Shown here piece after piece: positions 33,001 through 36,000 of a DNA stretch of 64,000 nt. The number at the start of each line of letters is the position of its first letter. The stretch's first letter is position 1. The stretch comes from Roseibacillus sp. Lineage in GTDB: Bacteria; Verrucomicrobiota; Verrucomicrobiia; Verrucomicrobiales; Akkermansiaceae. Position numbers: made by a program. Where the stretch lies: contig JBPOGI010000004.1 in NCBI GenBank assembly GCA_051251855.1, forward strand, positions 256,001 to 320,000, given 5' to 3'.

Positions 33001-36000
33001 CGATTCGACTCCTCACCAAAATCAAAATTGGGATAAAACTCCGAAACGCTATCGGTGACTTTTTCTACCACCCTCTGAAGCTCAATCGCTCGAGTATCGA
33101 AAAGATAGTCCCCAATCATTCCCGCATCCACAAACGTGAGATAGAGGTCCTGAATTCCACTCACCGGTGCCGATAGGACGATCTCGAATTTTCGAAAATC
33201 TCCAAAACCTCCTCCTGTCTGAGTCACATCGACGACGCCGAGCAGCTGACCAGTCTCTGAGCCCAGCCGCACCTCGACTTGCCCCCCAGCTTGAGGGGCT
33301 GCTACCTCAATCGAAAAATGATTTAATTCCGAACCAAAATCCAAATCCGTGAAGGCAATCCACGTGCCATCCTCTACGAATCCGACCACACCAGAACTGG
33401 TATTCCCTTGAATCGGCTGCGCATCGGGATGGGATTCCAAGCTGAAATCGGCAGAATTGAGCAAGACTCCCCAGCCCATGCTCGGAAAAACAAGAAAAGC
33501 GAAAGAGCAGGCTAAGTATTTAAGAATAAGGTTCATGGTGTGGCGGCTACTTATAAGAAACCAGCCACCGCACCATCTGTCTACCTAGTGATATTTCTAG
33601 GAATGCGCAGCCCCACCCTCCAGACCAAGCGCCTCATTCACTCTCTCCTTTACCGAAAGCTTAGAAGGTTACCCAAGAAAGGAGCATCAGCATCGAGAGC
33701 CACCCCGAAGCTGAAATCATCATCAGACCGCAATTTTTGCCCTAAAAATCGAAATCCAAGAGTGGCACAAATCGTTCTCCCCGCTTAAAACCCTTCACAC
33801 AATATGATTCCTACCGAGCACGACGACCCCATTAACGCCCGCATCCTCGAAGTTTCCGAAGACCTCGTCGCAGGATTCCAGCGTCAGCCCTTCGAAATCA
33901 TCGCCGAAAAGTCCGGGGTCGAACTCCCCATCGTCCTCGAGCGCATCCGCGCCATGCTGGAAGCTGGAGTTATCCGTCGTGTGCGCCAAACCCTTCTAGC
34001 TACCAAGCTCGCCCACGGAGCCCTCGTCGCCTGGCGCGTTCCCGAGGAAAAACTCACCGCCATCTTTGACTACATGTTTCAGCACGACCCCTTCTCGGGA
34101 CACGTCGTCACCCGCTCCACCGATAAGGAAGTCTCTGGCTCTGGCTATCGCCTTTGGACCACTTTAAAAGTCCCTCAAGGCGAGTCCCTCGACCATCACG
34201 CTACCGTCTTGAAAAACATCGTCGGTGCCGAAGAATACATTCTCATGCCCGCCCATGGCGTCTTCGCCCTCGGCGTCGGCCACACTCGCCGCAAAGGCCT
34301 TCCTCCCGGCGAAAAAATCGATACTCCCGCCGAAATGATGACCACCACCACCGTCGAGCTCACGGACGAAGAGTGGGACGTCCTTCTCGCCCTTAAAGAA
34401 GAACTCGCCCTCGACGAAGTCGTTTCTAACTGCTGGGACAAGCGCGCCGAAATCGCTGGCGTTTCCATCGATCGTTTTTGCGAAGTCGCCGAGACCCTCA
34501 ACGCCAAGAAAGTCATCGGACGCTTCTCGACCTTCCTCGAGCACGTCAAGCCCTCCGACACCGGTAAAAAAGTCACCCGCTTCAACGGCCTCTTCCACTG
34601 GGCTGTCCCCGAGGGAATGCAGCAACGAGCTGGAGCCGAAGTCGGCCGTCATCACTGCATGACCCACGCCTACTGGCGTGAAGGCGGACCGAGATTTGGT
34701 AACGTCAATATCATGGGAGTGATGCACGGCACCGAAAAGCCCAAGGTCATGGAGCACAAGGCCGCCATCGACAAACATCTCGAGGCAGAAGGAATCCCCG
34801 TTAGCTACACCAACGTCTTCTGGGGGGGCCGTTCCGAAATCAAGCCCTCCGAGATTTCCCCCAAAATTTACGCCGAATTCCACGCCAACCCACCCAAGTT
34901 CGAGGGCTAGGCAAGAGTCCCAGACCACTTAGAATTCCACCCGCCAAACCACGGAACCGTCATCTGCGGGCGATTTCACGTATTTTACTGCAATCCTTTC
35001 GGTCTCAGAAACTCCTACCGTATCACCATCTGGAATCGCCTCCCCTCGGCTGATCATGTAGCTTAAGAGATCAAAAAATCTTCCGATCGCCTCCCCAGGA
35101 CTCGTCATGGGAGTAATCATATAAAGGTCAGGAAGACCCAGCTGATTCATCCCTAGACTCAACATGCTCATCTTGCCTCCCTTCTCGGGTGCTCTACTCA
35201 GACCAGTCCAGAGCATCACCCGTCCTGCTTGCTCGGAATCGCGAGCTATTTCTTGAAAATACTCCACTGGGTGGGTCGCACCCGCATCGCCCCAATAGAT
35301 TCCTACCGCTGGCGCCACGTCACAAATCGCAGCCAGAAGAGAGGTGAAATCGGAGAGCACTTCCGCTGGACTCTTCGTGGTTTCCCCAACCATCAGACTC
35401 ACCATCAAATGCGCCTGATGAGGCCGGATTCCTTGTTGGTCATCGCCCAAAGAAGCAATCGAATAGGGATACGCCGCCTCGGCCTCCCCCTCCGGAATCG
35501 GAAGATCCATCAGAGCCAGAAAAGCCGTTCCAACTCCCTCCAGATGAAGAGCAATCACCTCACCGCCCTCTTCCCCCTCTTCATCCTCGGGGACAGTCAC
35601 TTCTGGTCCCCCATAATCCCTCAGAGCGACCGCCAAAGCCGCTGATTCACAACGGAATGGAGATTCCAAGAGAACAAACGCCAACTTCGTCGGAGGAACT
35701 GCAAGCTGCGGAAGCTCCACTCCGCCCGACCTACGAAATATATCAAAAAATCCCATAATCTCTATTCCCTCAGACTCGACAATCCCCTTCTAAGTTCAAG
35801 TTTTTTCCCTTGCCAGCCCCCCTGCCAGCCGTAGCTTTGAAAGTGCTAATGGCGTAAATCATTGGCCTTAAACCAGAGGACTCGTCCTCTTTAAACCACA
35901 CCAACATAAATAAAATGAAAGCAACAAAAGGACAAATGCGATCCGGTTTCACCTTGGTGGAACTCTTGGTCGTTATCTCTATCATCGTCGTTCTGGCCGG

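Follow-up and report, generated by a model that had tools for sequence, protein, structure and literature searches.

Three routes to haem are described, and in the available portions of four accounts (PMC13564367, PMC7242693, PMC10114771, PMC10991733) AhbC is the sole enzyme named for the conversion of 12,18-didecarboxysiroheme (DDSH) to coproheme. At the time of PMC10114771, according to the same portion, no work on purified AhbC was yet in print; in the available text of PMC12505453 it is proposed that in the AhbC reaction the side chains are lost as radicals, which are quenched by an electron and a proton. The AHB/SHD pathway (AhbA/B, AhbC and AhbD; Desulfovibrio, Methanosarcina) shares with the Roseibacillus genome studied here an AhbAB-family decarboxylase, SUMT and a (here weakly matched) CbiX-type chelatase, and in both HemE, HemY and HemH are not found. 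The two differ in that AhbC and AhbD were not found in our genome, ChdC is the terminal enzyme, an AKR-fold family co-occurs, and AhbAB is fused and divergent. The dual route of Haloferax volcanii (AhbA/B, AhbC and AhbD plus ChdC/PitA) is similar in its aerobic ChdC finish without UroD, CgoX and CpfC; unlike our genome, it has an annotated AhbC (PMC5746218, in the sections available). More generally, haloarchaea have AhbC and use ChdC aerobically, with the coproheme source left open as an unknown process in the available parts of PMC5746218 and PMC8305020. With the coproporphyrin-dependent pathway (HemE, HemY/CgoN, HemH, ChdC) our genome has in common a Firmicute-type ChdC with its motifs; it differs in the three enzymes named above as not found, and the AKR is found in none of the 62 ChdC-only Chloroflexota genomes.

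The window, a stretch of 64,000 nt of Roseibacillus sp. (Akkermansiaceae; GCA_051251855.1, JBPOGI010000004.1, positions 256,001-320,000), carries the AhbAB gene alone, all the other haem-pathway partners lying outside it. G-, L- and C-numbers are our handles for genomes, loci and contigs. The features of the window gene are:

33804..34910, plus strand: predicted fused AhbA-AhbB (NirDL-like) siroheme decarboxylase, 368 aa, of a divergent, tightly conserved clade
33876..34277, plus strand: AhbA-like half, residues 25-158 (NF040708, 56.9 bits against a cut-off of 140)
34101..34115, plus strand: first barrel motif H100-V-V-T-R104, aligned to H-N-Y-E-R of NirDL
34416..34790, plus strand: AhbB-like half, residues 205-329 (NF040707, whole-protein 80.4 bits against a cut-off of 125)
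34665..34679, plus strand: second barrel motif H288-A-Y-W-R292, aligned to H-C-Y-Q-R of NirDL

The protein consists of two halves, each an HTH plus ferredoxin-like barrel, matching AhbA and AhbB. In good agreement with the preliminary description of this DNA, which had called the ORF a fused AhbA-AhbB, it matches PF17805 above cut-off, and its best solved relative is the fused NirDL 4ch7 (E 2.7e-12). The claim that it hits both the AhbA and AhbB models also holds, but with both scores under the NCBIfam cut-offs. In a fold search with a low-confidence model (pLDDT 64) of the clade member P0121, 4czc, 4ch7 and 4czd ranked at the top. NirDL of haem d1 synthesis (4ch7/4czc) is thus the best match in both sequence and fold, with a common fused two-barrel architecture; the differences are that no NirJ-like radical-SAM protein was found in our genome and that the first motif is without its Tyr.

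The motif of siroheme decarboxylases is named HxYxR. Compared with NirDL, the first motif retains His and Arg and has Tyr substituted; 125 of the clade's 128 members fit the pattern H-[VI]-V-x-R, and three do not. The second reads H-[AC]-Y-W-R in 128/128, so that the motif Tyr is retained in the second half alone, His and Arg being invariant in both. According to the available text of PMC4835899, each barrel half has its His on strand two. The clade keeps about 60-80% identity over Verrucomicrobiota, Planctomycetota, Armatimonadota, Vulcanimicrobiota, Gemmatimonadota and Chloroflexota, and databases label the close homologues (Roseibacillus, Akkermansiaceae) as Lrp/AsnC regulators. Within the family the neighbours of ahbAB reflect housekeeping synteny, and nothing is conserved around it in 80 loci of other lineages. 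Downstream of ahbAB, window positions 35915-38608 hold three paralogous genes whose N-terminal motifs are of the pilin type (F-T-L-V-E-L-L in two); no haem link was seen.

The partners elsewhere in the genome (95.4% complete, 13 contigs) are:

C1:1690425-1691261: ChdC, Firmicute-type with its motifs
C1:1688842-1689078: ferredoxin, pathway partner beside chdC
C1:839905-841026: AKR-fold candidate, orthologue of the pathway-linked AKR family
C1:191742-192233: DUF1802 protein
C10:181010-181888: CbiX-like chelatase
C11:64670-66166: CobA-HemD fusion

This inventory bears out the preliminary one: ChdC passes its cut-off of 253 with a score of 253.5, the CobA-HemD fusion is confirmed, and the chelatase, a weak match, reaches 30.7 over the whole protein against a Pfam cut-off of 22. 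HemA and HemC are present. Searches of the genome with models and tblastn found none of HemE, HemH, HemY, SirC, AhbC and AhbD, as had been claimed: URO-D (HemE) gave no match, ferrochelatase (HemH) was not found, the AhbC model had no match at E<=1e-10, and tblastn with HemY, HemH, HemE and SirC queries returned one weak 69-aa match. The SirC model matches HemA alone, a point against a route through siroheme. A radical-SAM substitute for AhbC was considered and rejected: none of the 12 radical-SAM proteins of the genome, assigned to families by eye, is AhbC-like, and neither AhbC nor AhbD is among them. One of the 12, a 489-aa cysteine-rich protein at C7:331791-333260, was not assigned to a family by eye. 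The genome also has two sulfite/nitrite-reductase-like genes, and about 96 of its 3666 genes (crude gene calls) contain CxxCH. Here ahbAB, the AKR gene and chdC are mutually unlinked.

We reasoned from comparative data on about 300 genomes in all (family, six-phylum and Chloroflexota samples, in which kin are not independent). In 100 genomes that we drew from the family, AhbAB is matched in 82 (weakly in G013, and as a contig-end scrap in G032) and ChdC in 69. A true HemE occurs in 18, exactly those without AhbAB, and three more (G013, G024 and G073) have weaker URO-D matches. An AhbC/D-like pair is present in 19, seven with ChdC and 12 without. The gap state, ChdC without such a pair, accounts for 62/100 genomes and is the commonest state in the family, as previously stated, and the earlier remark that few ChdC genomes have the pair stands at 7/69. 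Two further observations of the preliminary description recur here, namely the proximity of ahbAB and chdC in some genomes (within about 5 kb in seven, from two genera, with housekeeping genes between) and a small ferredoxin beside chdC (21 of 30 short loci). G013 (L445) stands alone in the family in combining an AhbC/D pair with a weak canonical-type AhbAB, no ChdC and ten URO-D-family matches, all under the level of true HemE.

The preliminary description had found no AhbC substitute; a candidate AKR-fold family now goes most of the way towards supplying one. Four loci of our set showed an AKR next to chdC, and its best match in our genome is the product of C1:839905-841026. A search with this single protein finds the AKR in 69 of the 100 family genomes. 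It is present in 68 of the 69 ChdC genomes, the miss being G003 (69% complete), in 61 of the 62 without AhbC and in all seven with AhbC; G006 has the AKR with ChdC not found. It was found in 0/18 HemE genomes and 0/12 genomes with AhbC/D only. G049 has AhbAB and ChdC without HemE, plus the AKR, and is the sole such case among the nine genomes of its genus.

Similar results were obtained beyond the family, where the hybrid siroheme/coproheme reading is also supported. Fifty of the 80 AhbAB loci, from six phyla, were picked for taxonomic spread and contig size (tallies include G147, flagged unpublished). In these 50 genomes, all with AhbAB, we found ChdC in 48, HemE in none and AhbC-like proteins in 13; 36 are in the gap state, four of them single-contig chromosomes. 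The AKR profile finds one clear copy in 46/50, contig-end or frameshifted pieces in G147, G148 and G130, and no clear copy in G111. All 13 AhbC-bearing genomes retain the AKR, and we read AKR alongside AhbC as aerobic and anaerobic routes in parallel. L313 (G125:C1:1170239), in a single-contig Phycisphaeraceae genome, has AhbAB and the AKR, with AhbC and HemE not found; its sole ChdC-family protein is very divergent (55.6 bits). In one ChdC genome (G076, L091:118-3782) the AhbC/D-like pair adjoins a membrane protein without an NCBIfam match, to our eye NnrS-like, which suggests that the pair is an anaerobic add-on module.

In 151 Chloroflexota genomes, with at most 14 AKR candidates scored per genome, there are 13 AKRs (at least 374 bits, next best 241), 20 AhbAB and 76 ChdC. 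The AKR is in 13 of the 14 genomes with both AhbAB and ChdC and in 0/137 others, these being six with AhbAB only, 62 with ChdC only (G188, flagged unpublished, among them) and 69 with neither; no genome of the 36 with lower-scoring AKRs alone falls into the AhbAB-plus-ChdC class. AhbC was searched in 16 of the 151. Eleven of the 14 AhbAB-plus-ChdC genomes are without it, and ten of these 11 have the AKR; in the other, G270 (a fragmented assembly), neither was found. Three Chloroflexota genomes carry the AKR together with AhbC. In both AhbAB-only genomes tested, ahbC/D adjoin ahbAB, and of the 11 ChdC-only loci opened, eight have hemE- or hemH-like genes near chdC, with four proteins confirmed.

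Gene linkage points the same way. Among the fetched loci, which are not a systematic sample, 13 genomes from three phyla have the AKR no more than about 3.5 kb from chdC or ahbAB. The order in G150 is hemA-ahbAB-AKR-chdC. In G209 and G263 we find operons of the form sirC-hemA-hemC-AKR-[ChdC-Rieske-AhbAB], with a version in G200 cut by the contig end; directly downstream of the AKR is a triple fusion of ChdC, a Rieske [2Fe-2S] domain and AhbAB, of 810-860 aa, whose AhbA and AhbB parts score above the NCBIfam cut-offs in G209. In G068, ahbAB is followed by two housekeeping genes and the AKR; in the genera g9 and g20, ahbAB and the same two genes are followed by chdC. DUF1802 is found near the AKR, chdC or ahbAB in nine genomes of three phyla. 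The loci are:

L390:8973-11558 (G209), L391:4106-6544 (G263), L389:8404-10959 (G200): triple fusions
L392:8913-9494, L393:7815-8417, L404:11549-12127, and L293, L294, L288, L292, L285, L077: DUF1802

DUF1802, possibly a second pathway component, was found in G005 and not found in G081, G011, G054 and G200; it also occurs in the Synechococcus and Deinococcus controls, in which SirC is unmatched. Its look-alikes in the Atlas include none above 0.9. In G291 and G283 (L392:9514-9960, L393:7242-7667) a small cytochrome c separates chdC from DUF1802-AKR. Second-copy AKR-ahbAB pairs occur in G038, G027 and G068. In genus g11 these pairs are about 60-65% identical (L243:8870-11221 in G038; L244, L245, L246, L247), intact in G038 and G027 and broken in G068 and G058, with G010 lacking the AKR; that of G038 adjoins an apparent cbb3-type oxidase cluster, recognised by eye. 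A weak test for AKR fusions among longer proteins gave eight matches, none with a haem-pathway domain, and none of 21 metagenome loci found with the AKR has chdC or ahbAB.

The C1:839905 protein matches PF00248 and is modelled as an AKR TIM barrel (pLDDT 86), with AKR11-like fold neighbours (1pyf, 1pz1, 3n2t; TM 0.68-0.70). The catalytic tetrad of AKRs is Asp-Tyr-Lys-His. Here Y49 and H131 are retained, as in the AKR11-like proteins, V44 stands for Asp and M75 for Lys; the Asp and Lys are lost in 20/20 verrucomicrobial rows and retained in 46/46 others. Further differences from the AKR11-like proteins are an identity of at most 23% to any listed solved chain and a set of the family's own residues which, with Y49 and H131, is invariant in 66/66 rows. 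D79, N132, G164-P165-A166, E195, R243 and W247 are common to members and rare outside. In a quick tree (97 of 132 rows kept after thinning near-copies) the 66 members form one clade against 31 other AKRs (SH-aLRT 97), with a very long verrucomicrobial branch (2.3). Since members had been defined by profile score, an extra model was built from the 20 verrucomicrobial rows alone, and in its ranking every one of the 46 other members (96-141 bits) precedes the 31 outsiders, none of which exceeds 90. The converse model, built from the other members, fails to tell the two apart: some unrelated AKRs (up to 268 bits) outscore the verrucomicrobial rows (154-188). AKR look-alikes in the Atlas come from Verrucomicrobiota and Actinomycetota. 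The ChdC type differs by lineage (Firmicute-type here, actinobacterial-type in G209), and the AKR partner is one family.

The reading that best fits these data, and that they support, is a hybrid route whose AhbC step is served by no enzyme known so far. On the grounds of co-occurrence and linkage, the AKR very probably belongs to the haem pathway. Co-occurrence places it in the pathway and not at a given step; but since it accompanies AhbAB and ChdC, and not AhbC/AhbD alone, and the sole unfilled step is from DDSH to coproheme, we predict that the AKR-fold protein itself performs the AhbC step, at about even odds. With substrates and chemistry predicted from gene content, co-occurrence, linkage and family residues, CobA-HemD and the CbiX-like chelatase would lead to siroheme, through which we infer the route to pass; AhbAB would take the C12/C18 carboxyls off siroheme to give DDSH; the AKR-fold protein, in place of the radical-SAM AhbC, would remove the C2/C7 acetates to give coproheme; and ChdC with peroxide would convert this to haem b. 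This would amount to a fourth widespread haem pathway (probability roughly 0.5), used by aerobes of at least six phyla: the siroheme route run in air, with ChdC for AhbD, a C-C-cleaving AKR-fold enzyme for AhbC, help from ferredoxin or Rieske domains and perhaps DUF1802. To our knowledge, no AKR cleaves such a C-C bond. Given the role, the chemistry that we tentatively favour, at a little under even odds, would have DDSH bound by the invariant His/Arg of the AKR and its iron, with O2 or peroxide, generating a C3/C8 radical from which the side chain is shed; the electron donor would be NAD(P)H or, alternatively, the linked ferredoxin/Rieske domain. Less probably, NAD(P)+ might accept hydride from C3/C8, the side chain leaving as glycolate. 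Neither scheme requires the Asp-Lys relay lost in the verrucomicrobial AKR.

Alternatively, the route could be non-methylated: oxidation of uroporphyrinogen III, or of coproporphyrinogen III, would fall to the AKR, iron insertion to the CbiX-like chelatase and removal of all four acetate carboxyls to AhbAB, which would stand in for HemE as the AKR would for HemY, with no AhbC step. This would explain the mutual exclusion of AhbAB and HemE (18/18 in the family; HemE 0/50 elsewhere), SirC not being found in this genome and the altered first motif of this AhbAB clade; hard C-C chemistry is avoided and an oxidoreductase fold fits. We consider it unlikely, however, because in 11 family genomes the same clade is used with AhbC/D and without the AKR, and AhbC needs DDSH, which favours the siroheme route. 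So does sirC in the AKR operon, where the canonical AhbA/AhbB is above cut-off. NirDL does bind iron-uroporphyrin III, as the title of 4czc indicates, but as a crystal analogue this suggests no turnover. Siroheme demand discriminates neither way: sulfite/nitrite reductase (PF01077) is kept in 5/5 small genomes.

Slightly less probable still is that ChdC itself strips the DDSH acetates of rings A and B by peroxide radical chemistry, with the AKR, possibly together with DUF1802, in a supporting role, whether as a carrier, as a reductant or in clearing a glyoxylate-type by-product. These rings are already the site of action of ChdC, the ChdC-Rieske-AhbAB fusions bring the AhbAB product near it, the AKR tracks it almost perfectly in the family, and the lost tetrad residues could mean a non-catalytic AKR. 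Yet invariance of Y49, H131 and the family set in every AKR row argues against this reading, and since the ChdC types differ between lineages, the extra activity would have to be general or to have arisen repeatedly.

Replacement of SirC (precorrin-2 dehydrogenase) by the AKR, which would leave the AhbC gap unfilled, is very improbable: the NAD(P)-type fold would suit it and SirC was found in 0/4 family genomes tested, but we rejected it because there is no mutual exclusion, sirC and the AKR sharing one operon in G209 and G263 and both occurring in G103, while in G054 and G081 neither was found. Equally improbable is haem or coproheme uptake without a complete de novo route, AhbAB being an Lrp-type regulator or relic as its database name and sub-cut-off scores might suggest, given that HemA, HemC and CobA-HemD are intact, the best sequence and fold matches of AhbAB are siroheme decarboxylases, and AhbAB is conserved over six phyla and strictly replaced by HemE.

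What is new, compared with the preliminary description, is a candidate for the missing step in this genome, with the observation confirmed and its interpretation widened. Our literature search, with most subscription papers outside it, found nothing joining a keto reductase with coproheme or with siroheme/AhbA and, among the papers listed, nothing on an AhbAB-plus-ChdC hybrid. Hybrid paths are reportedly discussed by Dailey et al. 2017 (MMBR), so that this paper or its supplements may have described the gap before. If the proposed AKR route is true, a route free of radical-SAM chemistry would offer an air-stable handle on the step from DDSH to coproheme. A large AKR family that lacks annotation would gain a function, as would a protein that currently goes by the name of regulator. 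It would also correct pathway-completeness surveys that score fixed modules only, as described in the available part of 10.1101/2021.01.11.426183. Aerobic archaea reported to have AhbAB without AhbC/D may be explained as well; the cases made testable are Sulfolobus acidocaldarius, Haloquadratum and Nitrosopumilus, listed with ahb-nirDH and without nirJ1/J2 in the available text of PMC3004389, and aerobic Haloferax (PMC5746218, same portion as above). In our own control, S. acidocaldarius gave no NirJ1 or HemE match and has both AhbAB and ChdC.
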